The notes beneath the pieces were generated by a model. It did no database searches. It saw only the letters and a program-made list of their open reading frames with translations, and was not told the origin of the DNA. Both the position numbers and the translations under genes were made by a program. Positions 10,713-64,000 of a DNA stretch of 64,000 nucleotides are shown here, piece after piece. The first letter of the stretch is position 1; each line of letters opens with the position of its first letter. Source of the DNA: an uncultured Acidobacteriota bacterium (GTDB lineage Bacteria; Acidobacteriota; Vicinamibacteria; Fen-336); contig CAVSPR010000004.1 in NCBI GenBank assembly GCA_963729875.1, forward strand, positions 56,886-120,885. Reading direction: 5' to 3'.

Positions 10713-11714
10713 ATGAGAAGCAACGGACTCGTGGTCGCCATCGACGGCCCCTCCGGGGCCGGGAAGTCCACCGCCGGCCGCGCGCTCGCCGCGCAGCTCG
10801 CCTACACCTACATCGACACCGGGGCCATGTACCGCGCGCTCGCCCTCAAGGCCAGCCGCGCCGGGGTCTCGCTCGACGCGGAGGAGGCGCTCGCGCAGCT
10901 CGTGCGCGCCTCGAGCATCCAGCTCACCGAGGGAGGCCGCCGGGTGCTCCTCGACGGCTACGACGTGACCGCGGACATCCGCTCCCGGGAGATCAGCCGC
11001 GCCTCCTCGCTCGTGTCCGTGCACCCCGGCGTGCGCGTCGAGATGGTCGCCCGCCAGCGCGAGATGGGGAAGGACGGCGGGGTGGTCCTCGACGGGCGGG
11101 ACATCGGGACCGCCGTCTTCCCGGACGCCGAGGTGAAGTTCTTCCTCGACGCGAACCCGGGCGAGCGGGCCCAGCGGCGCCTCGGGGAGCTGCGCGCGGC
11201 GGGGAGCGACGTGTCCTTCGACGCCGTCGAGCAGGAGGTCCGCGAGCGGGACTACACCGACAGCCACCGCGCGGAGTCGCCGCTCGCCCGCGCCTGGGAC
11301 GCGATCGCGCTCGACACCACGAGGCTCGGGCCCGAGGAGGTGGTGGAGCGGATGCTCGCGGCGGTGCGGGCGCGCGAGGGCCGGCCCGTGGACCTCGGGA
11401 GGCTGGCCCAGGCGCACCGCCGCTCGTCGCGCCAGTACCTCGAGGCGCTGCGCTCGGGGCGGCTGAGCGTGGGCCTGTACCGGGTGGCCCAGGGCGAGGG
11501 CGAGGAGCGGCCCCGGGGGGAGGAGGTGACCTGCCTCGTCCTCGAGGGGCGGGGCCGCCTCCGGATGGGGGACGAGGACTTCGCGGTGGAGCCCGGCTGC
11601 CTGTTCACGGTGCCCGCTCGCGTGGAGCACGGGTTCCGCGAGGTCGCGGAGGACCTGCTCCTGCTCGTCTTCTCGGCCCCGCCCGAGGGCAGCGTGGCGG
11701 AGGCTGCGAAGTAG
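10713..11714 (+). CDS. cmk: cytidylate kinase fused to a C-terminal cupin-like domain
   Basis: AIDGPSGAGKST P-loop, IDTGAMYRA, VLDGRDIGT, RDYTDSHRAESPL. After ~aa 222 there is an extra ~110 aa with a beta-barrel pattern EEVTCLVLEGRGRLRMGDEDFAVEPGCLFTVPARVEHGF. Confidence 0.9.
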   Translation: MRSNGLVVAIDGPSGAGKSTAGRALAAQLAYTYIDTGAMYRALALKASRAGVSLDAEEALAQLVRASSIQLTEGGRRVLLDGYDVTADIRSREISRASSLVSVHPGVRVEMVARQREMGKDGGVVLDGRDIGTAVFPDAEVKFFLDANPGERAQRRLGELRAAGSDVSFDAVEQEVRERDYTDSHRAESPLARAWDAIALDTTRLGPEEVVERMLAAVRAREGRPVDLGRLAQAHRRSSRQYLEALRSGRLSVGLYRVAQGEGEERPRGEEVTCLVLEGRGRLRMGDEDFAVEPGCLFTVPARVEHGFREVAEDLLLLVFSAPPEGSVAEAAK

Positions 11715-11721
11715 GCCGGCC

Positions 11722-12111
11722 TCAGCGCGCGACGGCGTGCCCGGCCCGGGCGAGCGCGTCCTGCGCGCGCTCGAGGTCGCGCTCCTGGACCATCAGGTAG
11801 TCGGTGTCGTAGGTCGAGACGACGAAGATGCTGACGCCCGACGAGGCCAGGGGCCCCGCCAGGCTGGCCAGGATGCCGGTCACGCCGAAGCCGAGGGGCC
11901 CCACGACGCGCAGGCACCGCCAGCCCCGCTCCGCGCGGACGCCCGGGGGCACCGCGCCCTCGGGGCACACGACCGAGAGCTCCGCGTCGGTCCGGGTGAA
12001 CGAGACGAACGGCTTCGTCCCCGCCCACTCCGGGAGCGGCTCCGCGGCCTCCAGCCGGCACACGGCGTAGCTCCCCTCGACGACCTCCAGCTTCAGCGCC
12101 AGGTGCTCCAT
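11722..12111 (-). CDS. ACT domain-containing protein
   Basis: 129 aa: MEHLALKLEVVEGSYAVCRL..VVGPLGFGVTGILASLAGPLASSGVSIFVVSTYDTDYLMV. The ligand-binding ACT fold pattern is present. It starts 14 nt after the upstream GspE-like stop. Confidence 0.7.
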   Translation of the reverse strand: MEHLALKLEVVEGSYAVCRLEAAEPLPEWAGTKPFVSFTRTDAELSVVCPEGAVPPGVRAERGWRCLRVVGPLGFGVTGILASLAGPLASSGVSIFVVSTYDTDYLMVQERDLERAQDALARAGHAVAR

Positions 12112-12125
12112 GGCCTCGCCCTCCC

Positions 12126-13760
12126 CTACAGGCGGAGCCGGGAGAACTCGTCGAAGGTCGTGACCCCCGTCCGGACGAGCGCTATGACGCGCTCGCGGAT
12201 CGTGATCATGCCGCTCTCCATCGCCGCGTCCGCGATCTCCTCCGCCGGGCGGCCCCGCTCCAGGGCGGAGCGCACCTCGGCGCTCGCGGGGACGACCTCG
12301 AAGACCGCCCGCCGGCCGCGGTAGCCGACGGTGTTGCAGCTGGGGCATCCCTTGCCCCGGAAGAAGGCGAGCGTCTGCGCCTCGTCGTGGTCGATGCCGT
12401 GGGCGGCGAGGGTCCGGGCCGCGGGGGGCTCGGCCGGGACCTGGCAGATCCGGCAGATCGTCCGCACGAGGCGCTGCCCGAGGACGAGCCCGAGCGAGCT
12501 CGCCAGCAGCTGGGGCGGCACCCCGAGCTCGCGCAGGACCACGAGGGCCCGGACCGCGGAGGCCGCCGTTGCCTGGCCGATCACCAGCAGGCTGGAGGCG
12601 AGCTGCGAGGCCACCACCGCCGTCCCCTGGTCGGGGACGGCGGACAGCATGAGGACGTCGGGCCGGACCGCCACCATCGCCCGCAGCGTCTCCTCGATCC
12701 GCGGCCCGTGGGGGCCCGCCTCGGCCTCGACCTGCCGCACGCCGTCCATGGCCCAGTGGATGGGCGACTCGATCGAGAGCACGTCGCGCTGCCCCTGTGC
12801 GAGGAAGCTCATGATCGAGTAGCCGGTGGTGATCGCGCCGTTGAAGGCCGGCGAGGTGACGAGGATGAGGCCGAGGCCGGAACGGATCTCCTCCACGAGG
12901 CGCACGCGGTCCTCGAGCTCCAGGCCGAGGCCGGCGAAGTCCTTGATGAACGTGGAGCGGTTGACCAGCTTGACGGTCGCGCTCACGCCCTGCGAGCCGG
13001 GGACCGTCTGGACGACGAGGTCGAACTCGTCCTCCCCGAGCCGTGCCTTCGCGCGGCCCGCCTGCGGCCGCCCCCGCCTGGCCGGGTCGAGGCCGAACAT
13101 GGCGAACAAGGCGCGCTCGAGCGGGGCCTCGAACGACTTCGGTACGGGGTCGACCCGGAAGGAGAAGCCGTCGATCCGGTAGCGCACCGCCACCTGGTCC
13201 GGCTGGGGCTCCAGGCTCACGTCGGAGGCACGCTTGCGCGCGCCGAGGTCCAGCAGGTAGTCGAGCACGCTGTCGGGGTTGCTCTGCTGCCAGTAGACGG
13301 TGCCCGCGTCGCCCCCCCCGCGGGTGTCCGTGAGCCGGGTGACGCCCTGCGAGCGCAGCGCGGCGTCCACGTCCTCGCGGCTCACCAGGCCCTTGGCGGT
13401 CAGGATCTCCCCCAGCTTCGCCCCCGTGTCGCGCTGCTCGACGAGGGCCTCGAGCAGCTGCGGGGTCGTGATCCGCTTCATCCGGATCAGGATGTCGCCG
13501 AGGCGGTCCTGGCTCCGGCTGAGGGTCTGCACCTCCTCGACGAGCGGCGGGGGAGCGTGCCGCCAGAACTGCTGCTTGTACTCGGCGCTCGCGTCGCAGA
13601 AGCAGCGCAGGCAGAAGGGGCACAGCTTCGTCGGGTTCTTGGGGTCGTCGGAGCACCAGACCGCGCCCACTGCGTCGAACTCGCCGAGGCAGTTCCAGCA
13701 CGTGACGAGGTAGGGGACGGCCACGAACCCGAGGCTAGACGACAACTCCTTCGGAATCAA
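12126..13760 (-). CDS. GspE/PilB-family protein with degenerate ATPase motifs, N-terminal Cys-rich zinc-ribbon-like segment and MshEN-type domain
   Basis: N-terminus [21 protein letters not shown]2SSE_N/MshEN segment. ATPase core is recognisable, but Walker A reads [16 protein letters not shown] (versus GPTGSGKTTT) and Walker B reads [12 protein letters not shown] (versus DPDVIMVGEIRD). The tetracysteine CRICQ..GCPSCN is retained. The start codon is uncertain (TTG 13760). Confidence 0.8.
13347..13505 (-). other. tandem MshEN-type c-di-GMP-binding motif (two 24-residue motifs, 5-residue spacer)
   Basis: aa 86-138: [24 protein letters not shown] - RDTGA - [24 protein letters not shown]. Compare the published consensus RLGxx(L/V/I)(L/V/I)xxG(L/V/I/F)(L/V/I)xxxx(L/V/I)xxx(L/V/I/A)xxQ. 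Confidence 0.6.
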
Positions 13761-13775
13761 GACGGTGGACGATCG

Positions 13776-13805
13776 TTGACCCCCTTCGCGGCCCTGTGAT
13801 AGCGT
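13776..13805 (+). promoter_or_regulatory. candidate promoter for gcvT: TTGACC-N18-TAGCGT with TG extension
   Basis: TTGACC 13776-13781; TGaTAGCGT 13797-13805; ATG 13817 lies only 11 nt downstream. Confidence 0.35.
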
Positions 13806-13816
13806 GCCGTCTCGTC

Positions 13817-14920
13817 ATGATGGCCGAGCTTCGCAAAACCCCTCTCCACGCCGTGCACCGCGAGAGCGGGGCGAAGATGGTGCCCTTCGGCGGGTGGGAC
13901 ATGCCCGTCGAGTACTCGGGCCTCATCGCCGAGCACAACGCGGTGCGCACCGCGGCGGGGCTCTTCGACGTCTCGCACATGGGCCAGTTCGAGGTCGAGG
14001 GCGAGGGCGCCCCGGCCTTCCTCCAGCGCGTGACCGCCAACAACGTGGCGAAGCTGGTCGACGGCCAGGCCCAGTACTCGGCGCTGCCCATGCCGACCGG
14101 CTGCCCGGTGGACGACATCATCGTCTACCGCCGCTCCGCCCGGCGCTTCCTCGTCGTCGTCAACGCCGCCAACATCGAGAAGGACTGGCAGTGGCTGCTC
14201 GCCCAGCACCCGTCGGGCTGCGGGCTGCACAACCTGAGCGACCAGTTCGCCCTCCTCGCCCTCCAGGGGCCGAAGGCGGAAGCCATCCTCCAGGGGCTGA
14301 CCCCGATCGACCTCAAGACCGTCGCCTTCTACCACTTCGCCGAGGGGAAGGTCGAGGGCCGCGACGCGATCGTGGCCCGCACCGGGTACACCGGCGAGGA
14401 CGGCTTCGAGGTCTTCGTCGCCCCGGGCGACGCGGCCGCGCTCTGGCGCCGCATCGCCTCGGAGGGCAAGGTCCATGGCCTCCTCCCGGCCGGCCTCGGC
14501 GCCCGGGACACCCTCCGACTCGAAGCCCGCATGATGCTGTACGGGAACGACATGGACGAGACGACCACCCTGATCGAGGCCGGGCTGGGCTGGATCGTCT
14601 CGCTCGACGAGGCGAAGGGCGACTTGAACGGCCGGGCCGTGCTCACGGAGCAGAAGGCGAGCGGGGCTCCCCGCAAGCTCGTCGGTTTCGAGATGGTCGA
14701 GCGGGGGATCCCGCGCCACGGCTACCCGGTCGTGCTCGACGGCGAGGTCGTCTCGGCGGTGACGTCGGGGACCTTCGCCCCGTTCCTCCAGAAGAGCATC
14801 GGCCTGTGCTACCTGCCCGCGGCCCGGGCGGCGGTGGGCACGGAGATCGCAGTCGAGATCCGTGGCCGCCGGACGGCAGCCCGGGTGGTGCCCACCCCCT
14901 TCTACAAGCGTCCGCGCTGA
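13817..14920 (+). CDS. gcvT: glycine cleavage system aminomethyltransferase T
   Basis: [66 protein letters not shown] 13796 start is also possible. Confidence 0.95.
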
Positions 14921-14933
14921 GCCAGGAGGCGCC

Positions 14934-15320
14934 ATGTACCCCCAGGATTTTCGCTACTCGAAGGACCACGAGTGGATTCACGTCGAGGGTGAGCGCGGTC
15001 GGGTCGGGATCACCGACTACGCGCAGAAGCAGCTCGGCGACGTCGTCTTCCTCGAGCTGCCCGAGGTCGGGCGCGCCCTGAAGTCGGGCGAGCAATTCGG
15101 GACCGTCGAGTCGGTGAAGGCGGTCTCGGAGCTCTACTCCCCGGTGGCGGGAGAAGTCGTCGAGGTGAACGCGCCCCTGGCCGCGAAGCCCGAGACGATC
15201 AACAAGGACCCGCACGGCGCGGCGTGGATGATCGTGCTCAAGATCACCGACCCGGCCGGCGTCGGCGCGCTGCTGGACGCCGCCGCCTACCAGGCCCTCG
15301 TGGACAGCGAGGCGAAGTAG
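14934..15320 (+). CDS. gcvH: glycine cleavage system protein H
   Basis: AGGAGG then ATG 14934. [45 protein letters not shown] (lipoyl-lysine motif). Confidence 0.95.
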
Positions 15321-15382
15321 AACACGCGCCGTCCCCGGCCAAGCCGCAGCCGTTCCCGCCGCCCCAGAACGAGAGGAAACCC

Positions 15383-18283
<2,901 letters not shown>

Positions 18284-18290
18284 CCCCACC

Positions 18291-19064
18291 GTGGCCATCG
18301 ACAGGCGCGACACCGTCACCGGTCGGCCGCTCAGGGGCGTGCCCACGATGCCCGTCGGCCCGAGGCCTTCGGCGCCGGGCCGGGGCGCCGCGGCTCCCTC
18401 CCGGAGCCGCCGGCCGGCCGCGGGCGCGCCGGCCCCGCCGACCGTGGGCCTCGTCCTGTGGCCGGCGCTCCTCACCCTCGCCGTCACGGCCCTGCGCCTC
18501 GTCGGCGAGCTGCGGGGCTGGTCGCCCGCGACCTTCAGCCGCCTGGCGGGCGGCGGGCTGTCGCCGCTCGGCATCACGTGGCTGGCCCCGATCGTCGGCG
18601 CGTACTTCGGCTGGCGGCTCGCGAGGGCCGGCGTCGCCTCGCCTCACCCGGCGCGGGCCTTCGGCGTCCCGGCGGGGGCGCTCGCCCTGGGCTTTCTCCT
18701 CGGGACCCTCGGCGAGCGGCTGATCCGCCCGTCGGTCACGTCCACCATGGCCCTCTGGGCCATCGTCGCGCTCGGCGTCGCCGTCGCCGCCCTCGCCGCC
18801 TGGCCGGCCCTGGGCCGGCCCCTGCTCGCCTACGCGTACGCCGCGCGGCTCCCGGTCGCGCTCGTCATGGCCCTCGCCATGTGGAAGGCCTGGGGGACCC
18901 ACTACGACGCGCGGGCTCCCGGCTTCGGCACGATGCCGCCGCTGCGAGTCTGGCTGTGGACGGGCCTCCTCCCCCAGACGACGATCTGGGTGGCCTGGAC
19001 GGTGGCCACCGGCGCCCTGGGGGGCGCCGCCGGCTCGCTCCTGAAGATCCGCCGGCCGCGCTGA
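18291..19064 (+). CDS. integral membrane protein, unknown function
   Basis: Six or so hydrophobic helices (LVLWPALLTLAVTALRLV, ITWLAPIVGAYFGW, AGALALGFLLGTL, LWAIVALGVAVAALAAW, LPVALVMALAMW, LWTGLLPQTTIWVAWTVATGALGG). The start is uncertain (GTG 18291, ATG 18348 or later). Confidence 0.5.
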   Translation: MAIDRRDTVTGRPLRGVPTMPVGPRPSAPGRGAAAPSRSRRPAAGAPAPPTVGLVLWPALLTLAVTALRLVGELRGWSPATFSRLAGGGLSPLGITWLAPIVGAYFGWRLARAGVASPHPARAFGVPAGALALGFLLGTLGERLIRPSVTSTMALWAIVALGVAVAALAAWPALGRPLLAYAYAARLPVALVMALAMWKAWGTHYDARAPGFGTMPPLRVWLWTGLLPQTTIWVAWTVATGALGGAAGSLLKIRRPR

Positions 19065-19120: not shown

Positions 19121-20407
19121 TTGGAGAGGCGCGGCTTGTACTCAGAGATCCCGACCTACCACGAGCGGCTGAACCAGCTGACCGAGCAGCTCCGCGAGAA
19201 CGGCCACCTGGGCCTCGTGCTGATCGACGCCTCGGACCTCGCCCAGGTCGAGCACGACTACGGCTCGCTCGCCTTCGAGCAGGTTCTCTCGGTCGTGAGC
19301 GGCCTCGTCCGCGAGCTCCAGGGCGCCGAGGTGCGCACCACCGACATGCTGGCGCTCAACGAGCGCGGGGGCAACGCCTTCCTGCTCTTCCTCTCGCCGC
19401 GCCGGGGCGAGAGGGTGAGCCGCCCGCGGATCGCCGACCTCGAGTCGATCTGCCAGCGCGTGGACGAGCAGCTCAACCGCAAGCTCGCCGCGTTCAAGTC
19501 CCCCTACCTGCGCGGCAAGCGCCGGGTCACCGCGGGCTTCGCCGTCGTCTTCCACAACCCCCTCATCATGGCCGAGCGGGTCGTGGCCCGGCTCGTGAAC
19601 GAGGCGTGGGAGAGCGTCCGAATCCAGAGGAGGCAGGCCGACTTCCACACGCGCTGCCGGCTCCAGGACGTGCTGCTCGGGGACCAGATCACGACCGTCT
19701 TCCAGCCCATCGTGGACCTGCACGGGGGCGGCCTCCTCGGCTTCGAGGCCCTCTCGCGGGGCCCGGTCGGGACCCAGCAGCACAGCCCGGTCAACCTGTT
19801 CGAGGCCGCCGCCGCCTCCGACCTCGTCTTCGAGCTCGACCGGCACTGCCGGCGCCGCGCGCTGCGGACGGCCCAGGCCCTGCCCGCGCCGCACCACCTC
19901 TTCATCAACGTGGTACCGGCCTCGATGTACGACCCCGACTTCCAGGGGGCGAGCCTCATCCACCTGCTCGAGGGGCTGGGACTCTCGCCCGAGCGGATCG
20001 TGCTCGAGGTGAGCGAGCAGTACGCGATCGAGAACTACACCCTCTTCGTCGAGGCGCTGCAGAACTTCACGCAGATCGGGTTCTCGATCGCGGTGGACGA
20101 CATCGGGGCCGGCTACTCCGGGCTCGAGAAGATCGCCCACCTCAACCCGCGGTACCTGAAGTTCGACATGCAGCTGGTGCGCGACATCGACCGCGTCCAC
20201 GTCAAGCGCGAGATGGCGCGGGCGCTCAAGACGTTCGCGGACAAGATGGACTCCCTGATCATCGCCGAGGGCATCGAGCGCGAGGGCGAGCAACAGGCCT
20301 GCGTCGACCTCGGCCTGCACTACGGCCAGGGGTACCTGCTGGCCCGGCCCGCCCCCCTGGAGACGTTCAACCTCGGCCCGGTGGAGCCTTCTTCCGCTCG
20401 CGTATGA
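19121..20407 (+). CDS. c-di-GMP phosphodiesterase: degenerate GGDEF-like domain + EAL domain
   Basis: N-terminal half has a GGDEF fold with RGGNAF in place of GGDEF. EAL half is intact: [51 protein letters not shown]. Confidence 0.85.
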
Positions 20408-41635: not shown

Positions 41636-43495
41636 ATGAGCGAGAAGCACGCGCCCGCCGGATCGAAGCCGTTCCTCGACCGGCTGGCCGAGGGCACCGT
41701 CGTGTTCGACGGGGCGATGGGCACGATGCTCTACGCCCGCGGGGTCTTCCTGAACCGCTGCTTCGACGAGCTCAACCTCTCGAGCCCCTCCCTCGTCCGA
41801 CAGGTCCACACTGAGTACGTCGAGGCGGGCGCGGACGTGATCGAGACGAACACGTTCGGGGCCCACCGGTTCAAGCTCGGCCCGCACGGGCTCGAGTCCC
41901 AGACCCGGAAGATCAACCGCGAGGGGGCCCGGATCGCCGGCGAGGTCGCGAAGGGCCGCGCCCTCGTGGCCGGGGCCATCGGCCCCATCGGCAAGCCGCT
42001 CGCCCCGATCGGCAACGTGCGGCCGGAGGACGCCCAGGCGGCCTACCGTGAGCAGGCCGAGGGCCTGCTGGAGGGCGGAGTCGACCTCTTCCTGCTGGAG
42101 ACGATGCCCTCGCTCGACCAGGCCCGGGCGGCGCTGGCCGCGGTCCGCTCCCTGACGACCGATGTGCCGGCGGCGGTCAGCCTGACCTTCAGCGAGGAGG
42201 GCAACACCATCCACGGCGACCGGCCCGAGGACGTCGTGCGCGAGCTGGAGGCGCTCGGGGTGCCCCTGATCGGCGCCAACTGCAGCCAGGGGCCGCAGGC
42301 GATGCTGGAGACCGTCCAGCGCATGGCGGCGGTCGCGCGCACGGCGAAGCTCTCCGCCATGCCGAACGCCGGCTCCGCCGCGCTCGTCGAAGGAAGATAC
42401 GTCTATCTCTGCACGCCCGAGTACATGGCGACCTGGGCCCGGCGGTTCCTCGAGGCGGGCGTCAGCGTCGTGGGCGGCTGCTGCGGCACGACCCCGGCGC
42501 ACATCAAGGACCTCGTCCGCTCGGTCCGCATGTACCAGCCGGCGCGGGCCGAGGTGAAGGTCCTCCCGCCGTCGAGGCCGAAGGAGGCGCCGGCCGCGCT
42601 CCCGCCCGAGGCGAAGTCCCCCCTCGGCCGAAAGCTGCGGCGCAAGTTCGTGGTCTCGGTCGAGCTCGACCCGCCTCGTGGCGCGGACCCGGGCGCCCTC
42701 ATCGAGCGCGCGCAGCTGTGCAAGGAGAACGAGATCGACGCGATCAACGTCGCGGACGGGCCACGGGCCTCGGCGCGGATGAGCGCGCAGGCGCTGTGCA
42801 TCCTCCTCCAGGAGAAGGTGGGGATCGACACCATCCTCCACTACACGTGCCGCGACCGGAACCTCCTCGGCATCCAGTCCGACCTGCTGGGCGCGCACGC
42901 CCTGGGCCTGCGGAACATCCTGGCGATCACCGGCGACCCACCCAAGCTCGGCGACTACCCGGACGCGACCGCCGTGTACGACGTGGACTCGATCGGCCTC
43001 ATCCGGATCATGGACCACCTCAACCACGGGTGCGACCTGGCCGGCAACCTGATCGGTCCCGCCCTCGGCCTCCACGTGGGGTGCGGGGCCGACCCGAGCA
43101 AGCCGGACATGGAGAAGGAGGTCCGCCGGCTCGAGGAGAAGGTGAAGGCGGGGGCCGAGTACGTGATGACGCAGCCCGTCTACGACCCGAGGACGCTCGA
43201 GCGGTTCTTCTCGATGGTCCGCCACCTCGACCTGCCGCTGCTCGTCGGCATCCTGCCCCTCTACTCCCACCGCAACGCCGAGTTCCTCCACAACGAGGTC
43301 CCGGGGATGACCATCCCGGACGACATCCGCGAGCGGATGCGCCGGGCGGGCTCGGGGGAGAAGGCGCAGCTCGAGGGGGTCAAGGTCGCGCAGGAGGCGA
43401 CGCTGTGCGCCCGCGAGATGGGGCAGGGCGTCTACGTCATGCCGCCCTTCAACAAAGTGGAGCTGGCCGTCCGCGTGATCGACGTCCTGCGCTAG
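41636..43495 (+). CDS. bifunctional homocysteine S-methyltransferase / 5,10-methylenetetrahydrofolate reductase (YitJ type)
   Basis: N-terminal half: VVFDGAMGTMLY, ADVIETNTF, IGANCSQGP, VVGGCCGTTPAHI. C-terminal half: FVVSVELDPPRG, AINVADGP, HYTCRDRN, NILAITGDPP, YVMTQPVYD (MTHFR fold). 619 aa uninterrupted. Confidence 0.9.
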   Translation: MSEKHAPAGSKPFLDRLAEGTVVFDGAMGTMLYARGVFLNRCFDELNLSSPSLVRQVHTEYVEAGADVIETNTFGAHRFKLGPHGLESQTRKINREGARIAGEVAKGRALVAGAIGPIGKPLAPIGNVRPEDAQAAYREQAEGLLEGGVDLFLLETMPSLDQARAALAAVRSLTTDVPAAVSLTFSEEGNTIHGDRPEDVVRELEALGVPLIGANCSQGPQAMLETVQRMAAVARTAKLSAMPNAGSAALVEGRYVYLCTPEYMATWARRFLEAGVSVVGGCCGTTPAHIKDLVRSVRMYQPARAEVKVLPPSRPKEAPAALPPEAKSPLGRKLRRKFVVSVELDPPRGADPGALIERAQLCKENEIDAINVADGPRASARMSAQALCILLQEKVGIDTILHYTCRDRNLLGIQSDLLGAHALGLRNILAITGDPPKLGDYPDATAVYDVDSIGLIRIMDHLNHGCDLAGNLIGPALGLHVGCGADPSKPDMEKEVRRLEEKVKAGAEYVMTQPVYDPRTLERFFSMVRHLDLPLLVGILPLYSHRNAEFLHNEVPGMTIPDDIRERMRRAGSGEKAQLEGVKVAQEATLCAREMGQGVYVMPPFNKVELAVRVIDVLR

Positions 43496-48056: not shown

Positions 48057-49280
48057 TCAGGCTGTCTTGACGAGCGGCGGCCGCGGCGCGGGTTCGCCGA
48101 GGGCCTCGCCGAGCTTCAGCTGCTTCAGGTAGAGGCGGAAGCGCCGCTGCTGGGCGCGGGGCATGTGGATGATCTCCGTGCCGATCTCGAAGCCGCCCCG
48201 GGCCCCCACCACGCGCAGGACCCTCACCGCGGCCTCCACCGTCTCCCCGTTCGGGGGGAGCGACAGCTGGACCCTCACGAAGGCGCCCGTGGGCAGCGGC
48301 TCCGGCGCGTGGAAGAGGACGCCGCCCTCGCTCACGTTGATCGTGGTGAGGGCGTGGGAGCCCTTCTCGAGGGCGCTGTACCGGCCGGGGAGTGTCGCCT
48401 CGAGCCGCGAGTACTCGCGCCGCTCGTCGGAGAAGGGCTTGACGCAGTTCTTGCCCATGCTCTTCGCGATGTAGAGCGCCCGGTCCGCCCGGTCCACGAG
48501 CTCCTGCGCGGTCGTGGCGTCGCCGGGCAGGCCGGCCACCCCGATGCTGACGGTGAGCGGCCGGCCGCCGCGCTCCTCGTCCCGGCCGATCCCCGCGTCC
48601 TCGACGGCCGCGCGCAGCTTCTCCCCGATCTTGAGGGCGGCGAGCTTGGGGGTGCTCGGGAGCAGGATGGCGAACTCCTCGCCGCCGTAGCGCGCCACCA
48701 CGTCCACCTCGCGCACGGTCTTCTTCAGTACGGAGGCCATGCGGCGCAGGGCCATGTTGCCGGCGAGGTGCCCCTTCGAGTCGTTGAGGGCCTTGAAGTC
48801 GTCGGCGTCGATCATGAGGAGGGTGAGCGGCGTGTCGTAGCGCTCCGCGCGCCGTACCTCGGAGACGACCCGGTCCTGGAAGTAGCGGAAATTGTAGAGG
48901 CGGGTGAGCTCGTCGTAGATGGCGGAGTCCTGGGCCTTGCGCAGGATCTTGATCTCGACGATCGCCGGGTTGTGGAGCTTGCGCTGGCTGCGCAGGAAGT
49001 ACTGCAGCACCGCCACCCGCAGGTCCACCTTCTCGGGGACGAGCCGGTTCAGGTCCTCCCACTGGCGCAGCACGCGGAGCCAGTGCTCGTGGGCCCGGGC
49101 GGGGGCGAAGTCGAGCTGGGTGAGGACGAAGAGGAGCACCCCGTAGACCTCGGGGCCCTCCGCGGCCTCCAGGCGCTCCATCGCCTCGCGCCAGCCCGCG
49201 GGGGTCTTCGGCCCCGTCCCGAGCATGGCGATGATGCGGTCCGCGACCACGGTGTTGAGCCGGCTGTCCTGCTTCACCAT
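48057..49280 (-). CDS. diguanylate cyclase (GGEEF, with RxxD I-site) fused to a C-terminal PilZ domain
   Basis: ATG 49280 (MVKQDSRLN). ..DELTRLYNFRYF.., LLMIDADDFKALND, REVDVVARYGGEEFAILL (RxxD 5 residues before GGEEF). PilZ motifs RREYSR and NVSEGG about 22 residues apart. Confidence 0.85.
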   Translation of the reverse strand: MVKQDSRLNTVVADRIIAMLGTGPKTPAGWREAMERLEAAEGPEVYGVLLFVLTQLDFAPARAHEHWLRVLRQWEDLNRLVPEKVDLRVAVLQYFLRSQRKLHNPAIVEIKILRKAQDSAIYDELTRLYNFRYFQDRVVSEVRRAERYDTPLTLLMIDADDFKALNDSKGHLAGNMALRRMASVLKKTVREVDVVARYGGEEFAILLPSTPKLAALKIGEKLRAAVEDAGIGRDEERGGRPLTVSIGVAGLPGDATTAQELVDRADRALYIAKSMGKNCVKPFSDERREYSRLEATLPGRYSALEKGSHALTTINVSEGGVLFHAPEPLPTGAFVRVQLSLPPNGETVEAAVRVLRVVGARGGFEIGTEIIHMPRAQQRRFRLYLKQLKLGEALGEPAPRPPLVKTA

Positions 49281-49318
49281 CGTCCCGTTCTCCCGCGCGT
49301 CCCGGGCCACGCTCGCCC

Positions 49319-50539
49319 TCAGGCCATCTTCTCGACCGGCGCCGGCCGGCCGAAGTGGTAGCCCTGGGCGTGCGAGAAGCCCGCACGCATGCACGCCGCG
49401 GCCTCTTCCGGCGTCTCCACCCCCTCGGCCACGGTCTTCACGAGGAGCTCTCGGGCCGCCGCCACCAGCGAGGCCACCAGGCGCTGGCGCGACGTGGGCG
49501 CGTGGTCGAGGCCGGTGACGAAGCGGCGGTCGAACTTGAGGTAGTGGGGCGGGGCCTCGGCCAGCTCGAACAGGCGCGCCTGGCCGGCCCCGAAGTCGTC
49601 GTAGGCGAGCCCCACGTTGATCTCCATGAGGCGGCCGCGCAGCCAGGTGATGAACTCCGTCTGGGCGAGGGCGCTCTCGTGGATCTCGAGCACGAGGTCG
49701 ACGTGGGGGGCGAAGGTCCGCAGGTCCTCGAGCGACTCGAGGAGCCCCGGGGTCTCGAGCTCGATCGGGTGCGTGTTCAGGAAGAGCAGGGGCGGCTCCG
49801 GGCGGTCGCGCACGAGCTCGACCGCCTTGCGGCGGAACAGCCGGCTCAGCTGGGCCTGGGCCTCCGCGCCCAGCGCCCCCGCGAGGTCGAACAGCTCCAC
49901 CGGGCTCTCGGGCAGGCCCGCCATCCGACCCCGGCCGAGGGCCTCGTAGGCGGCCACCCGTCCGGAGGGGAGGGTCACGACCGGCTGGAAGAACATCGTG
50001 ACCGCGCCCTCGTCGATGAGCTTGCGCACCTCGGCGCCGCCCGAGATGAAGTGGCGGCTGAGGGGCGCGGTGCGCACCAGCGTGCCCTCGTCGTCGGCCT
50101 CGTCCCTCTCCGGCACGTCGCGCGAGACGCGGAACTCGTAGTCCCCGAAGTGGAGGACGTCGCCCTCGTGGAGCGGGGCGTCCGTCACCGGCTCCCGGTT
50201 CAGGAACGTGCCGTTCCGGCTGCCGAGGTCGCGGACGCGCAGCGAGAGGCCGTCCGAGTAGATCTCGGCGTGGGTCTTCGACACGTGAGCGGAGGACAGG
50301 ACGAGCTGGAGGCCGGGCGAGCGGCCCACCCGGAAGGGCAGGGGCTGGAGCGGGGTTCGTTGCAGGGAGCCGTCGTCTCCGACCGGGCTCTCGAGGACCC
50401 AGAGGCCGGCCGCGCCGGCGGCGGCCCTCGCCTCGAGCAGCCGGGCGCGCAGCTCGGCGGACTCGGGCGGGGCGAAGCGCAGCGTGTCGCGCTTCTTGCC
50501 GAAGGTCGGTGTCGTGGCCCGGTCAGCACTCATTCCCAT
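49319..50539 (-). CDS. FHA domain + EAL domain c-di-GMP phosphodiesterase
   Basis: FHA: FRVGRSPGLQLVLSSAHVSKTHAEI..VRDLGSRNGTFLN. EAL: YEALGRG, FLNTHP, LEIHES, YDDFGAGQ, LKFDRRF, AEGVET, AQGYHFGRP. Confidence 0.85.
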   Translation of the reverse strand: MGMSADRATTPTFGKKRDTLRFAPPESAELRARLLEARAAAGAAGLWVLESPVGDDGSLQRTPLQPLPFRVGRSPGLQLVLSSAHVSKTHAEIYSDGLSLRVRDLGSRNGTFLNREPVTDAPLHEGDVLHFGDYEFRVSRDVPERDEADDEGTLVRTAPLSRHFISGGAEVRKLIDEGAVTMFFQPVVTLPSGRVAAYEALGRGRMAGLPESPVELFDLAGALGAEAQAQLSRLFRRKAVELVRDRPEPPLLFLNTHPIELETPGLLESLEDLRTFAPHVDLVLEIHESALAQTEFITWLRGRLMEINVGLAYDDFGAGQARLFELAEAPPHYLKFDRRFVTGLDHAPTSRQRLVASLVAAARELLVKTVAEGVETPEEAAACMRAGFSHAQGYHFGRPAPVEKMA

Positions 50540-50721: not shown

Positions 50722-53451
50722 ATGACCACGTGCCCGGTCTGCTCCGCGCCGGTCGCCGATGAGCACCGGTTCTGTCCCGGGTGCGGGCTCAGCCGGGACA
50801 TTGCCGACAGCCCCACCGGGACCGCCCCTCGCCGCGCCTCGTCTTCGACGGAGTCACCTTCCCGGTCGGCCGGCGCCACGGGCGCCCGCGCGGCCGAGCG
50901 CTTCGCCCCGGGCACGGTGCTCGCCGGGCGCTACCGCATCGGGGGCCTCGTCGGCCGCGGCGGCATGGGCGAGGTCTACCGGGCCGACGACCTGAAGCTC
51001 GAGCAGCCGGTGGCCCTCAAGTTCCTGCCGCGAGCCCTCGAGGGCGACCGCGACCGCCTCGAGCGGCTGTACGGAGAGGTGCGGATGGCGCGGCAGGTCT
51101 CGCACCCCGCCGTCTGCCGCGTCTGGGACGTGGGCGAGGCCGAGGGCCAGCACTTCCTCTCCATGGAGCTCGTCGACGGGGAGAACCTCTCCTCGCTCCT
51201 GCGCCGGATCGGGCGCTTCCCGCAGGACAAGGCGGTCGAGATCGCGAAGCAGGTGTCGGCCGGGCTCGCCGCCGCGCACGAGAAGGGCGTCCTGCACCGC
51301 GACCTCAAGCCCGCCAACGTCATGCTCGACGGCCAGGGCAAGGTGCGCATCACGGACTTCGGCCTCGCTGGCCTCGCCCACTCGCTCGGGAGCGGCGACG
51401 TCCGCTCCGGGACGCCCTCCTACATGTCGCCCGAGCAGCTCCTGGGGCGCGAGGTCACGGCCCGCAGCGACATCTACGCCCTCGGTCTGCTCATCTACGA
51501 GCTCGTGACGGGGCGGCGCGCCTTCGAGGGCAAGGGCCTCGCCGAGCTGACGCGCAAGCAGCGAGACGAGCGGCCGATCGAGCCCTCCGCGATCGTCCCC
51601 GACCTCGACCCCGCCATCGAGCGGACGATCTACGCCTGCCTGGAGAAGGACCCGAAGCGCCGGCCGCAGTCGGCCCTCGTCGTGTCCGCGATGCTCTCGG
51701 GCCGCGACCCGCTCGAGGCCGCCATCGCGGCCGGCGAGACCCCGTCGCCCGAGCTCGTGGCGGCGGCGGGCGAGTCGGAGGGGCTCCGCCCGAAGGCGGC
51801 CTGGGCGTGTCTCCTCGTCGCCGTGCTGGGCATCTTCCTGCTGCCCGCCCTGCAGACGCGGCGCCACCTCCTCAGCCTGGTCCCGGCGGAGAAGGGTCCC
51901 GAGGCGCTCGAGGACCGGGCCCGCGACTTCGTCGCCCGCGTCGCGCCGGGGGTGCAGGCCGTGGACCGGGCGGTGGGCACCTCCTTCGACGGCGAGTACG
52001 TCCTCTGGGCCCAGGAGCGGGACCGCTCGTCGCAGCGGTGGGCGTCGCTCGCCACGGGCGACCCGCCGCTCCTGTCGTTCTGGTACCGGCAGAGCCCGCG
52101 CCCCCTCGCCACTTCCTCGGTCAGCGGCATGGCGGGATGGAGCGACCCGCCGGCGCGCGTGACGGACATGGCCGGCGTCGAGTACGACCTCCAGGGGAGG
52201 CTCCTCTCGTTCTACCGGGTGCCCCCGCAGCGCGAGCGCGAGAGCGGGCCCGCGCCGGCCCCGGACTGGACGCCCCTCTTCGAGGAGGCCCGGCTCGACC
52301 CCTCGAAGCTCCGGGCGGTCGAGCCACGCTGGACGCCCGCGCTCTACTGCGACACGCGCGCGGCCTGGGAAGGGGCGTGGCCGCGGCGCCCGGACATCCC
52401 GATCCGCATCGAGGCGGCCGCGTACCGCGGGCGGCCGGTCTGGTTCGAGGTCGTCAACCCCTGGACCCGCCCCGCGCGGGACGAGGCCTTCCCCTTCACC
52501 GCGGGCCAGCGGGGGATGCAGGCGTTCTACGTCCTCGCGCTGGTCGCGCTGGCGGCCACCGGCGGGCTCCTGGCCTACCGCAACATCCGACTCGGCCGCG
52601 GCGACCGGCGGGGTGCCTTCCGCCTGGCCGTCGGCCTCACGGCGCTGGCCGTGGGCGCCTGGGCCCTGCGTGCCCACCACCTGGCCGACCCGGCGGCCGA
52701 GCTCGTCGGGGCGGCCCGCGGGATCGGGCTGGCGGTGGTCGTGGCGGCGTTGCTGTGGCTCTTCTACCTCGCCCTCGAGCCGTACGTGCGTCGCCTACGG
52801 CCCTGGACGCTCGTCTCCTGGGCCCGCCTGCTCGACGGCGGGTGGCGCGACGCCGTGGTGGGCCGCGACGTTCTCATCGGGGTGGCGGGGGGCACGGTCC
52901 TGGCGCTGCTCAGCATCCTCGCCCGCATGCTCCCCGGGTGGCTCGGCCGGCCGGCCCCCTCGCCCGAGCCCCTGGGGCTCGATGCCCTGCTCTCGACCCG
53001 GATGCTGCTGAGCTACGTGGTCGGCCTGCCGGTGAATGCGACGCTCCTCGGCCTGGGCCTGCTGCTGCTCTTCCTGGTCCTGCGGCTGCTCACGCGGAAG
53101 GACCTGGTGGCGGCGGCGCTCGTCGTGACATTCGTGGTGGCGGGGGACCTGGGCGGCGCGAAGGAGAACACCTGGCTGATCATGCCGATCGCGGTCGTCG
53201 TCTGGGGCTCGTTCGTCGCGGCGATGCTGCGCTTCGGCGTCCTCGCCGCGATCACGGCCGTGCTCATGGCCAATCTGCTCCTCGTTCCGCCGCTCCTCTA
53301 CGCGCCAGGCAGCTGGACTGGCAGCGCCACGTTCGTGGTCCTGCCCCTGCTCGTCGCCCTCGCGGTCGTGGCGTTCCGCTCCGCCGTCGGGGGCCACTCC
53401 GGCCTGCGCCGCTACCTGGCCGGCGAGCCGCCCTCGTCCCGTCCCAGGTAG
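50722..53451 (+). CDS. Ser/Thr protein kinase with N-terminal zinc ribbon and C-terminal polytopic membrane domain (paralog 1)
   Basis: CPVCSAPVADEHRFCPGCG; GRGGMGEVYRA, ALKFL, HRDLKPANVML, ITDFGLA, GTPSYMSPEQ; then ~550 aa with one TM, an extracytoplasmic region and 7-8 C-terminal TM helices. Confidence 0.9.
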   Translation: MTTCPVCSAPVADEHRFCPGCGLSRDIADSPTGTAPRRASSSTESPSRSAGATGARAAERFAPGTVLAGRYRIGGLVGRGGMGEVYRADDLKLEQPVALKFLPRALEGDRDRLERLYGEVRMARQVSHPAVCRVWDVGEAEGQHFLSMELVDGENLSSLLRRIGRFPQDKAVEIAKQVSAGLAAAHEKGVLHRDLKPANVMLDGQGKVRITDFGLAGLAHSLGSGDVRSGTPSYMSPEQLLGREVTARSDIYALGLLIYELVTGRRAFEGKGLAELTRKQRDERPIEPSAIVPDLDPAIERTIYACLEKDPKRRPQSALVVSAMLSGRDPLEAAIAAGETPSPELVAAAGESEGLRPKAAWACLLVAVLGIFLLPALQTRRHLLSLVPAEKGPEALEDRARDFVARVAPGVQAVDRAVGTSFDGEYVLWAQERDRSSQRWASLATGDPPLLSFWYRQSPRPLATSSVSGMAGWSDPPARVTDMAGVEYDLQGRLLSFYRVPPQRERESGPAPAPDWTPLFEEARLDPSKLRAVEPRWTPALYCDTRAAWEGAWPRRPDIPIRIEAAAYRGRPVWFEVVNPWTRPARDEAFPFTAGQRGMQAFYVLALVALAATGGLLAYRNIRLGRGDRRGAFRLAVGLTALAVGAWALRAHHLADPAAELVGAARGIGLAVVVAALLWLFYLALEPYVRRLRPWTLVSWARLLDGGWRDAVVGRDVLIGVAGGTVLALLSILARMLPGWLGRPAPSPEPLGLDALLSTRMLLSYVVGLPVNATLLGLGLLLLFLVLRLLTRKDLVAAALVVTFVVAGDLGGAKENTWLIMPIAVVVWGSFVAAMLRFGVLAAITAVLMANLLLVPPLLYAPGSWTGSATFVVLPLLVALAVVAFRSAVGGHSGLRRYLAGEPPSSRPR

Positions 53452-53534
53452 CCCGGCGACCGGGGGACGCGGCCATCCACGGCACCTTTCGCCCCCCGAC
53501 TCCGTAGATAAGAGAGAATCACTCGGGGGAGACC

Positions 53535-62784: not shown

Positions 62785-64000
62785 CTACAGCCGGCGCGTG
62801 ACGTTCGGGAAAGACCGCCAGACCGGCACGCCGCAGAAGTGCTCGCCCTCGGTGCACCGGGGCGTGACGTGGCCATTGCGCAGGACGCACGGCGGGCCCA
62901 TGTGGCGGACGAGCCGGGGGTGGACGGCCCGCACCTGATCGAGCTCGTCCATCGAGGCCCGGTAGATCTCCTCCTGCGCGTTGAAGCAGGTGCGCAGGAC
63001 CCACTTGTGGGAGAGGTACAGCAGGCTGCCGCTCTCGTGGAAGCGCAGGGCCTTCGCGTTCGGCAGCAGGTAGAGCGCCGCCTCGAGCGGGACGCCCATC
63101 TCGAGCAGGCGGTTCTTGGCCGCCCACGCCCGCGCCATCGCCTCCTCGTACTCCGCCCGCGCGGCGGGGTTCGCGGCGACGAGGGGAGGCGTCACGCAGT
63201 CGGGCCGGCGCGTGTCGGTGAGCGTCATGAGCGGCCGCGAGGCGGGGACCATCCGGTGCCGCTGGTCCTGGCTGTCCGCGGTGTGGGAGAGCTTCTTGAG
63301 GAAGGTATAGGTCGCGTGGTGCATGGCCCGGCCGAGGGGCGAGTGCACCGACAGCTGCAGCGTCTCCAGGCGGTAGCGGTTCAGGCCGGGGTCGAGGAGC
63401 CGCTCGAGGGCGTCGTCGTCACCGAGCTGGGCGGGGGAGGTCCCGAGGACGGCCCGCACCGCCTCGGCGGTCGTCTCCTCCGCCCGTGCCATGTGGTCCA
63501 CGAGCAGGGAGACGCGGTCCCCGAGCCGCGCGTCGATCCGCGCCGCCTCGGAGTCGCCGTCCATCTCGACCCGGGGCAGGTGTGCCTCCACCACCCCGGT
63601 CTCTTCGAGCGGCCCCTGGCCGATACGCGCGAAGAAGGCGGGATCCCTCTCCTGCACGAGGCCGACCATCGCCTCCAGCACCGCGCGGGTCTCGGCCGGG
63701 GCGTCCCCCGTGCGCATCATCCGGTAGAGCCGGTGGAGCACGATGCCCGAGACCGTGTGCACCATCGACGTGAAGGCCGCCACCGGGATCACGTAGCGGG
63801 CGATCTCGATCGCCTTCTTCTCGGCCTCGCGCTCGACCTTCTTCCGGCGTTTCTCGGAGGCGTTCGGGGTGAGGTGCCTCAGCTCGGAGAGGATCCGCAG
63901 GGTGTCGGCCTTGAGCAGCAGCGTGAGACGTCGGTAGCTCTCCCAGGCCGCCTCGACGGCGCCCTCGTAGACGGAGCGCGCCTCCGGCGACAGGCCCTCC
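62785..64000 (-). CDS. ThyX-like (Thy1-family, FAD-dependent thymidylate synthase-like) protein, 5' end beyond window
   Basis: The ORF is open to the window edge. ..LSHTADSQDQRHRM.. and ..HKWVLRTCFNAQEEIYRASMDEL.. resemble the ThyX RHR and R.C..AQ.EIR regions. Atypical length and a Cys-rich C-terminus (CVLRNGHVTPRCTEGEHFCGVPVW). Confidence 0.5.
   Translation of the reverse strand, partial: EGLSPEARSVYEGAVEAAWESYRRLTLLLKADTLRILSELRHLTPNASEKRRKKVEREAEKKAIEIARYVIPVAAFTSMVHTVSGIVLHRLYRMMRTGDAPAETRAVLEAMVGLVQERDPAFFARIGQGPLEETGVVEAHLPRVEMDGDSEAARIDARLGDRVSLLVDHMARAEETTAEAVRAVLGTSPAQLGDDDALERLLDPGLNRYRLETLQLSVHSPLGRAMHHATYTFLKKLSHTADSQDQRHRMVPASRPLMTLTDTRRPDCVTPPLVAANPAARAEYEEAMARAWAAKNRLLEMGVPLEAALYLLPNAKALRFHESGSLLYLSHKWVLRTCFNAQEEIYRASMDELDQVRAVHPRLVRHMGPPCVLRNGHVTPRCTEGEHFCGVPVWRSFPNVTRRL

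Follow-up and report, generated by a model that had tools for sequence, protein, structure and literature searches.

The pseudo-ATPase gene and its start codon

We analyzed a 64-kb stretch of DNA from an uncultured Acidobacteriota bacterium of the class Vicinamibacteria (GenBank assembly GCA_963729875.1, contig CAVSPR010000004.1, positions 56,886 to 120,885), referred to below as the window, which has a G+C content of approximately 72%. The gene of interest lies on the minus strand at 12126–13724, with its stop codon at 12126–12128, and encodes a protein of 532 amino acids from a GTG start. From the N-terminus, the protein carries a Cys-rich module, a tandem motif of the type through which MshEN domains bind cyclic di-GMP (c-di-GMP), and a core with the fold of the PilB/GspE-type secretion ATPases (Pfam family T2SSE) in which the catalytic motifs are degenerate; we refer to it as the pseudo-ATPase. 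A sequence-only reading of the same DNA had proposed that the protein is a c-di-GMP receptor that has lost ATP hydrolysis and acts as a scaffold or regulator rather than as a secretion or pilus motor.

The open reading frame (ORF) on which that proposal was based, 12126–13760 on the minus strand, is present as described, and its uninterrupted frame and G+C content at third codon positions (GC3) of 0.98 identify it as a real gene. All protein strings quoted from it, including residues 86–138 and the Walker A and Walker B regions, were found in the translation. The start codon had to be revised. Homologs are 530–533 amino acids long and begin at an equivalent GTG, and the TTG at 13760, previously taken as the start, belongs to the first (−35) hexamer of a conserved promoter-like element, CTTGATT-N17-TAGCCT-N6/7-GTG, which takes up the 36 nt before the start and is found in seven loci. 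Because of the length of the homologs and the conserved element upstream, translation almost certainly begins at GTG 13724, giving 532 amino acids. Residue numbers refer to this protein except where the 544-residue numbering of the ORF from TTG 13760 is indicated.

Structure and catalytic motifs of the core

The protein matched the Pfam model T2SSE (PF00437) with 173.8 bits, compared to a gathering score of 24.9, over residues 174–540 (544-residue numbering). Its structure was predicted by AlphaFold2 (AF2) from an alignment of 110 family sequences (31–90% identity), referred to below as the 110 homologs. The model of the full protein had a predicted local distance difference test (pLDDT) score of 87.8 and a predicted template modeling (pTM) score of 0.75, and comprises both a T2SSE-fold core and an MshEN_N-like four-helix bundle. 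A small beta-rich module at the N-terminus is followed by a long helix (59–70), the four helices of the bundle (75–81, 87–100, 104–110, and 116–125), a disordered linker (approximately 131–139), and then the N2 and RecA-like core. Comparison with the PDB by Foldseek matched the model to PilF (5oiu) and PilB (5tsh and 5zfr) with E values of approximately 1e-37, the best superposition being upon PilB (5tsh_E) with a TM score of 0.93 and a root-mean-square deviation of 2.3 Å over approximately 385 residues. From the Pfam match and the Foldseek alignment to 5tsh_E, the N2-like domain of the PilB/GspE core was placed at 12915–13277 (minus strand, approximately residues 150–270). The RecA-like C-terminal 'ATPase' domain, delimited by Pfam, the alignments, AF2, and Foldseek, occupies 12129–12914 (minus strand), and all of its catalytic motifs are degenerate.

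We located these motifs by residue-level phmmer alignment to PilF (6f8l) and PilB (6olj and 5zfr). At the Walker A position (12825–12854, minus strand, residues 291–300), SPAFNGAI lies over GPTGSGK[ST] (PilF segment litGPTGSGKSFTtFS), with Ala in place of the Lys and Ile in place of the Ser/Thr. At the Walker B position (12630–12665, minus strand, residues 354–365), SAVPD lies over GEIRD (reference segment PDIIMVGEIRD) and the catalytic Glu is gone. The alignments thus bear out the earlier observations that Walker A is without GKT/S and that Walker B lacks its acidic catalytic residue. The His box has lost its His (12558–12590, minus strand, residues 379–389; QATAAS over TLHTND, reference segment LVIATLHTNDA), and in the Asp box, where IESPIHW lies over IEDPVEY (ESPIH for EDPVE), the second acidic residue is replaced. 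The C-terminal tetracysteine zinc motif, CRIC..CPSC, is retained as reported (12336–12455, minus strand; C424, C427, C460, and C463), and all of its Cys residues are invariant in alignments of 17 and of 110 sequences.

The substitutions in Walker A are shared by the family. At the position of the Walker A Lys, the 110 homologs have Ala (83), Ser (13), Thr (5), Gly (4), or Leu (3), and in no case Lys; in addition, all 22 proteins with the Cys pattern among the best 150 representatives are without GxxGxGK[ST]. The Walker B Glu, gone in the target protein, is variable across the family. Because each of these signatures has been replaced, Walker A at both its Lys and its Ser/Thr, Walker B at its Glu, and the Asp and His boxes besides, it is well supported from these alignments that the protein is unable to hydrolyze ATP as its relatives do, in agreement with what had been proposed. 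The equivalog models for the active motors were far from reached (GspE, TIGR02533, 236.5 against a cut-off of 630; PilB, TIGR02538, 223 against 676), indicating that neither motor is orthologous to the protein.

Strong conservation is also seen in the loop that stands in place of Walker A. Within the pattern xPxxNGxxTTxY (residues 291–302, window 12819–12854), P292, G296, and Y302 are found in all 110 homologs, T299 in 106, T300 in 102, and N295 in 89, and the old nucleotide pocket may still bind something or have some other function. One explanation would be that the pocket has been repurposed, this loop binding a nucleotide or a phosphorylated ligand without hydrolysis so that the protein integrates two small-molecule signals. 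The strong constraint upon the loop and the intact fold of the core are consistent with such a role, but both the Lys and the Mg-ligand Ser/Thr are gone, degeneracy extends to the Walker B Glu and to the Asp and His boxes, and none of the tools suggested a ligand. We consider a repurposed pocket distinctly unlikely.

The MshEN-type motif

The MshEN_N-type c-di-GMP motif is encoded at 13347–13505 (minus strand; residues 74–126, or 86–138 in the 544-residue numbering) and consists of two 24-residue motifs, at residues 74–97 and 103–126, joined by the spacer RDTGA; the five-residue spacing is exact, as had been noted. The NCBIfam model NF053729 ('cyclic di-GMP-binding domain, MshE-related') matched with 56.8 bits over positions 1–53 of its 53, compared to a curated cut-off of 38, and in alignments with PilB and PilF the segment falls on their MshEN regions. 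In MshEN, c-di-GMP is bound through six contact positions per motif, R1, L2, G3, L17, L21, and Q24 (PMC5013675). Motif 1 of the pseudo-ATPase is identical at six of six; motif 2 (K1, L2, G3, V17, L21, Q24) is identical at four of six, with K1 being allowed by the relaxed pattern and V17 being hydrophobic but outside the pattern's printed hydrophobic set. These residues are conserved in the 110 homologs, motif 1 having R in 95, L in 103, G in 110, L in 109, L in 107, and Q in 110 at the successive contact positions, and motif 2 having K (51), R (30), or L (25) at position 1, L in 102, G in 106, I, V, or L at position 17, L in 105, and Q in 108. The match to the curated model and the conservation of the contact residues across the family support the MshEN assignment made in the sequence-only reading. 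Pfam PF05157, the model for the MshEN_C/T2SSE_N (N1E) subdomain, had no match in the protein, this region being deleted in comparison to family members of 610–630 amino acids; the MshEN_C subdomain is not required for the binding of c-di-GMP by MshE of Vibrio cholerae (VcMshE; PMC5013675).

The motifs deviate from the consensus at two positions each. The G10 to K change in motif 1 and the R1 to K change in motif 2 had been recognized earlier and are real, but one further deviation per motif had been missed: motif 1 has R at position 11, where L, V, I, or F is needed, and motif 2 has T at position 7, where L, V, or I is needed. Motif 1 is consequently without the turn Gly and fails, at positions 10–11, even the relaxed pattern given by Wang et al. 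2016. The K10/R11 pair is a family-wide feature (K or Q at 10, K or R at 11), motif 2 has G10-L11-V12, and AF2 still predicts the alpha1-alpha2 turn despite K10 and R11.

These deviations bear on whether c-di-GMP binding has been lost and the protein is a structural pseudo-ATPase, its MshEN-like bundle serving as a protein 'landing pad' in a constitutive scaffold, as proposed for the GSPII-A domain of PilF. Binding has been lost in XpsE-type domains (PMC5013675). [quoted passage not shown] On the other hand, the cut-off of NF053729 is passed with a margin, and it is the contact residues, not just the hydrophobic core, that are nearly invariant over 110 sequences, including both Gln and both Gly3. 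A scaffold that no longer binds c-di-GMP is therefore a possibility that we take seriously and judge to be unlikely.

The N-terminal Cys module

The Cys module (13551–13712, minus strand, residues 5–58) has the pattern Y-x-V-x-CxxC-x11-C-x-[D/C/H]-x8-CPxCxxCFC...FWxxAP, with seven invariant Cys and an eighth ligand position. All ligand positions are present in the target protein (C9, C12, C24, D26, C35, C38, C41, and C43); the extra N-terminal Cys segment that had been noticed, C21xxC24..C36..C47xxC50xxC53xC55 in the 544-residue numbering, is confirmed. The seven Cys are invariant in the 110 homologs, and position 26 is Asp in 55, Cys in 46, and His in 9. Asp, Cys, and His are all able to bind metal. 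When modeled alone with AF2, the module had a pLDDT of 92.3. No match was found in Pfam or NCBIfam at E ≤ 5, and comparison with the PDB gave nothing significant either by sequence (best profile E value 0.18) or by fold (Foldseek, best E value 2.0); the weak, non-significant Foldseek matches were all to zinc domains, namely IBR/RING2, FYVE-like domains, and zinc ribbons. The eight ligand positions probably form a metal site for two zinc ions, or possibly for an Fe-S cluster.

A homolog search limited to the Cys-module region gave close orthologs only, owing to the word index that it used, and it was a whole-genome profile search that revealed fusions to receiver (REC) domains. The module was found by profile in 86 of the 401 sampled Acidobacteriota genomes (48 of 227 genera), with many of the matches falling in short ORFs. 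At least 20 genomes of the same class from other families (f2–f11) are without it, and the source genome has a single copy. The pattern of the broader family is CxxC-x11-C-x-[C/D/H]-x7-9-CPxCxxC[F/S/L]C ... FWxxAP, located at the N-terminus of a signaling protein. For analysis of architecture we fetched 18 matches outside full-length pseudo-ATPase genes. In one architecture the Cys module is joined to a receiver domain (PF00072), most of these proteins having approximately 211–243 amino acids; in the other it is joined to MshEN with no ATPase. Among the loci from genomes G040 and G293, one (L071) has two module-plus-receiver units in one frame, and a second (L078) has three Cys modules followed by a single receiver domain. 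Its occurrence with receiver domains in some proteins and with only MshEN in others indicates that the module is an independent domain that pairs with signal-input domains, and these architectures would suit an element shared for docking or output.

Conservation and selection

Searches recovered at least 615 homologous proteins at E ≤ 1e-10, the best 120 being 64–91% identical to the pseudo-ATPase, and an exhaustive search over 1.84 billion cluster representatives gave further members at 27–44% identity. Close orthologs keep the same degenerate motifs. Some of the distant members have 530–540 amino acids; others have 600–630 or more, with an inserted MshEN_C/T2SSE_N domain. The ratio of nonsynonymous to synonymous substitutions (dN/dS) was calculated pairwise against nine orthologs and was 0.22–0.41 overall and 0.22–0.28 (about 0.25) for the eight closest, all of these figures being overestimates because dS is compressed by the extreme GC3. 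Calculated by domain, dN/dS was 0.23–0.45 for the dead C-terminal domain and 0.11–0.29 for the Cys module, with purifying selection upon every domain. Taken with the conservation of the contact residues, these data indicate, at the level of sequence, that the ligand-contacting head has been retained by selection while catalysis has been given up.

The same data bear on the trivial explanation that the locus holds a decaying pseudogene or an assembly artefact. The loss of all catalytic motifs would be expected of such a gene, but the frame is uninterrupted, the AF2 model is confident, and there are more than 600 homologs, with the same substitutions in the motifs of every one examined. The shared substitutions also exclude a local sequence error as the cause of the Walker deviations, the degenerate Walker A being a family trait (Lys in 0 of 110 homologs, a canonical P-loop in 0 of 22 proteins), and the dN/dS of 0.22–0.28 excludes gene decay. 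Homolog conservation and dN/dS together refute the pseudogene or artefact explanation, to which we assign a practically negligible probability.

Two side observations concern the composition of the family. Some lineages have two dead paralogs in tandem. In two such loci (L020:5264–8878 and L023:2314–5948), both of the Cys-module pseudo-ATPases (approximately 570 and 621 amino acids) are without the Walker A Lys, and the pair is flanked by a Peptidase_M4 gene on one side and a pair of Peptidase_M16 genes on the other; the tandem paralogs could form a hetero-oligomer of two dead subunits. Orthologs of the Vicinamibacteria type, with 77–93% identity, also occur in records labeled 'Hyphomicrobium sp.' and 'Betaproteobacteria bacterium' (L013 and P0066), the first of which also shares the glycine-cleavage (gcv) synteny described below. 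The source contigs of both are probably mis-binned contigs of metagenome-assembled genomes.

Genomic context

The neighbors of the pseudo-ATPase in the window are housekeeping genes, with rluB, hisC, a cytidylate kinase (cmk)-cupin fusion, and an ACT_7 gene flanking it to one side and gcvT, gcvH, and gcvP to the other. Beyond gcvP there is a membrane ORF (18291–19064) and then an EAL protein. As had been reported, there are no pilus or type II secretion system (T2SS) genes nearby: none was found among the ORFs scanned across the 64-kb window, and none beside the pseudo-ATPase in the related loci examined. We classify the protein as a T2SSE-fold pseudo-ATPase with an MshEN_N domain, and not as GspE, PilB, or MshE, because the catalytic features and the genomic context that define these proteins fail.

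The absence of such neighbors bears on a further explanation, according to which the protein enters assemblies of an active PilB, GspE, or PilT paralog as a regulatory or poisoning subunit and thereby tunes a pilus or secretion motor according to c-di-GMP. The N2 and C-terminal fold through which hexamers form is retained, the same genome has at least five canonical T2SSE paralogs (404–448 bits, compared to 175 for the pseudo-ATPase), and related acidobacteria have two family members in tandem. Against this, the loci examined have no pilus or T2SS neighbors, the tandem partners are both dead, and the MshEN_C/N1E subdomain of MshE and GspE is missing. The contact of GspE with its T2SS partner GspL is made by an N-terminal region of which this subdomain forms part (PDB 4pht). 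We regard a poisoning subunit as very improbable.

The gcvT-gcvH-gcvP (gcvTHP) glycine-cleavage operon, identified by Pfam at 13817–18283 on the plus strand, is divergent from the pseudo-ATPase gene, with its head-to-head position supported by synteny. The arrangement was found in 13 of 13 loci of the Vicinamibacteria type. It is also found in the P0124 lineage, where the target is 44% identical, and in a Polarisedimenticolia-type lineage, where it is only approximately 28–36% identical; the remaining flanks all differ among these three lineages, and the pairing is missing in twelve other families. A hemA-hemC-hemD flank is common to the loci of families f42, f54, f68, and f80, and these loci were consequently counted, together with the Polarisedimenticolia locus L018, as one lineage and not five. 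Conserved divergent gene pairs often join a regulator with its target. The pairing suggests a physiological link to glycine and one-carbon metabolism, which we offer as a lead and not as a result. Rfam, including its glycine riboswitch model, had no match between 11 and 21 kb of the window nor in the gcvT/pseudo-ATPase intergenic regions of four further loci (L014, L018, L006, and L011).

A block of heme-biosynthesis genes beside the pseudo-ATPase is conserved across four GTDB families. In five loci from another acidobacterial lineage (L090, L094, L096, L097, and L018), the pseudo-ATPase lies between this block, consisting of hemA, hemC, and a cobA/hemD fusion, and the divergent gcvTHP operon; in L018, additional genes intervene between these hem genes and the pseudo-ATPase.

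Promoter-like elements of the two divergent transcription units lie back-to-back within approximately 90 bp (13725–13816, 92 bp). That of the pseudo-ATPase gene (13725–13760, minus strand) consists of TTGATT at 13760–13755, 17 nt, TAGCCT at 13737–13732, 7 nt, and the GTG, and is kept in the window locus and in L001–L005 and L010. That of gcvT (13776–13816, plus strand) consists of TTGACC at 13776–13781, 18 nt, TAGCGT at 13800–13805, 11 nt, and the ATG at 13817, and on this side GGTCAA and GCTA[T/C]CACA are invariant in seven loci. A scan for the sigma-70 consensus gave nothing at its threshold, the pseudo-ATPase element scoring below it. From conservation only, we infer that the upstream element is the pseudo-ATPase promoter and that the messenger RNAs (mRNAs) of both genes would be leaderless or near-leaderless, because the −10-like hexamer sits only 7–11 nt from the start codons; the gcvT element is likewise a putative promoter. 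In five other loci (L006, L007, L009, L011, and L013), approximately 100 nt of extra leader separates the TAGCCT hexamer from the GTG. Approximately 20 metatranscriptome reads of relatives map to the region, most with less than 95% identity, which is too few to define a transcript start; their orientation agrees with minus-strand RNA over 13312–13683, in the 5' part of the coding sequence, this being very thin evidence.

On the downstream side, an ACT-domain gene (ACT_7/A9CJY8-like_N by Pfam; 11722–12111, minus strand) begins 14 nt beyond the pseudo-ATPase stop codon, at the distance given earlier, and in the window the two genes are probably co-transcribed. Its adjacency varies within the Vicinamibacteria: the gene adjoins the pseudo-ATPase gene in L001, L002, and L005, lies apart from it in L003, L004, and L012, is not within the fetched stretch of L006, L007, and L011, and is missing beside the distant members. 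As a hint to a functional partner, the ACT gene is therefore weak, adjacency not being conserved, and we downgraded it from candidate partner.

Other parts of a c-di-GMP network are found in the window, including the EAL protein (19121–20407), a GGDEF-PilZ fusion (48057–49394), and an FHA-EAL protein (49319–50539). The EAL protein (plus strand) has an N-terminus that by eye is degenerate GGDEF-like, Pfam reporting the EAL domain only. Its position is kept in Vicinamibacteria loci with 62–85% identity, such that the gcv operon has a putative c-di-GMP receptor on one flank and a phosphodiesterase on the other. The GGDEF-PilZ gene overlaps the FHA-EAL gene (48057–50539, minus strand), and two large Ser/Thr protein kinases come next (50722–56273), giving a dense signaling cluster. 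The cmk-cupin fusion (10713–11714, plus strand) is a cytidylate kinase with a C-terminal cupin (Cupin_2, 34.9 bits) and is conserved in related loci, with a tblastn match of approximately 330 amino acids. A single ORF at 41636–43495 (plus strand) combines homocysteine S-methyltransferase and methylenetetrahydrofolate reductase domains; it adds a one-carbon gene to gcvTHP and thyX (62785–63792) in the window.

Interpretation

The reading that we favor, and hold to be probable, is that the pseudo-ATPase is a cytoplasmic c-di-GMP-sensing adaptor or receptor, not a motor, derived from a PilB/GspE-type hexameric secretion ATPase, with an inferred role as a scaffold or regulator. By analogy with VcMshE, c-di-GMP would bind the MshEN bundle. 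Binding would alter the presentation to a partner of both the N-terminal Cys domain and the core, which is dead and probably oligomeric, so that the level of c-di-GMP would be converted to a protein-protein (or protein-nucleic acid) interaction and not to the work of a pilus or secretion system. In this mechanism, docking or output would fall to the Cys domain as an element common to these proteins, with c-di-GMP as its driver in the pseudo-ATPase and phosphorylation in the relatives that carry receiver domains. Several of the results described above weigh against this reading: the two deviations in each motif and the lost turn Gly of motif 1, the precedent of GSPII-A together with the helix upstream of the RLG, the constraint upon the loop in the old nucleotide pocket, and the variable adjacency of the ACT gene.

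The Cys module and the gcvTHP pairing can also be read jointly. A so far unrecognized Acidobacteriota signaling system would then use the module as its common domain for output or docking. Within this joint reading, one target may be addressed both by phosphorylation, through the REC-fused proteins, and by c-di-GMP, through the MshEN/pseudo-ATPase proteins; the pseudo-ATPase might exert direct control over the glycine-cleavage operon, or the two might be under common control; and the protein could be a c-di-GMP-responsive DNA- or RNA-binding regulator acting through the zinc module. If true, a secretion-ATPase scaffold would here have given rise to a c-di-GMP transcription factor of a new kind. 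We put it forward only tentatively and think it rather doubtful.

For the reading as a c-di-GMP receptor, the family would represent a secretion-motor fold kept for hundreds of millions of years after catalysis was lost, with its sensing head intact, and thus a clean natural case of a motor turned receptor. To our knowledge, c-di-GMP signaling is almost unstudied in the Acidobacteriota, which are among the most abundant of soil bacteria. Full-text searches of the literature found no paper on a dead MshEN-T2SSE family and none on this Cys domain. Known receptors for c-di-GMP are far fewer than the enzymes that synthesize and degrade it (PMC5013675). A previously undescribed, probably metal-binding domain, common to many receiver proteins, would provide a handle upon the downstream targets of both routes, and the gcvTHP pairing would provide a concrete physiological link that is open to testing.

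Comparison with known systems

The closest characterized protein in terms of the ligand-binding motif is MshE of V. cholerae (VC0405; MshEN structure PDB 5HTL; PMC5013675), which has the same N-terminal 53-residue tandem RLG...Q motif, four-helix bundle, and T2SSE core with tetracysteine; both proteins match the NF053729 motif model. MshE differs in being an active ATPase, in being encoded in a pilus operon, and in having the MshEN_C subdomain. The pseudo-ATPase has no catalytic residues, no MshEN_C, and no pilus context, and it has the extra N-terminal Cys domain.

The best matches in both sequence and fold, with TM scores up to 0.93, are PilB of Myxococcus xanthus and Geobacter (3jc8, 5tsh, and 6olj) and PilF of Thermus thermophilus (5oiu and 6f8l). 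These proteins also carry c-di-GMP-binding GSPII/MshEN domains, but their Walker, Asp, and His boxes are intact and they work as motors. A report on M. xanthus PilB describes a signaling role for it apart from pilus assembly (PMC5544727); in the pseudo-ATPase, signaling would be the sole role.

For the Cys module, the nearest likeness is to IBR/RING2 (of the RBR ligases), FYVE-like domains, and zinc ribbons, with which it has in common eight metal-ligand positions, CxxC...CxC...CxxCxxCxC, in a small beta-rich fold of approximately 55 residues. There is no significant match in sequence or structure to any of these, however, and the module is not assignable to one of them.

FimX, LapD, and PelD are catalytically dead c-di-GMP effector proteins with degenerate GGDEF/EAL domains. 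Like the pseudo-ATPase, they retain under selection an enzyme fold that is used for signaling after the loss of catalysis. In these receptors, however, the dead domain is itself the c-di-GMP site, whereas the pseudo-ATPase has its predicted ligand site in MshEN, a separate and intact module, with the former output motor as its dead domain.

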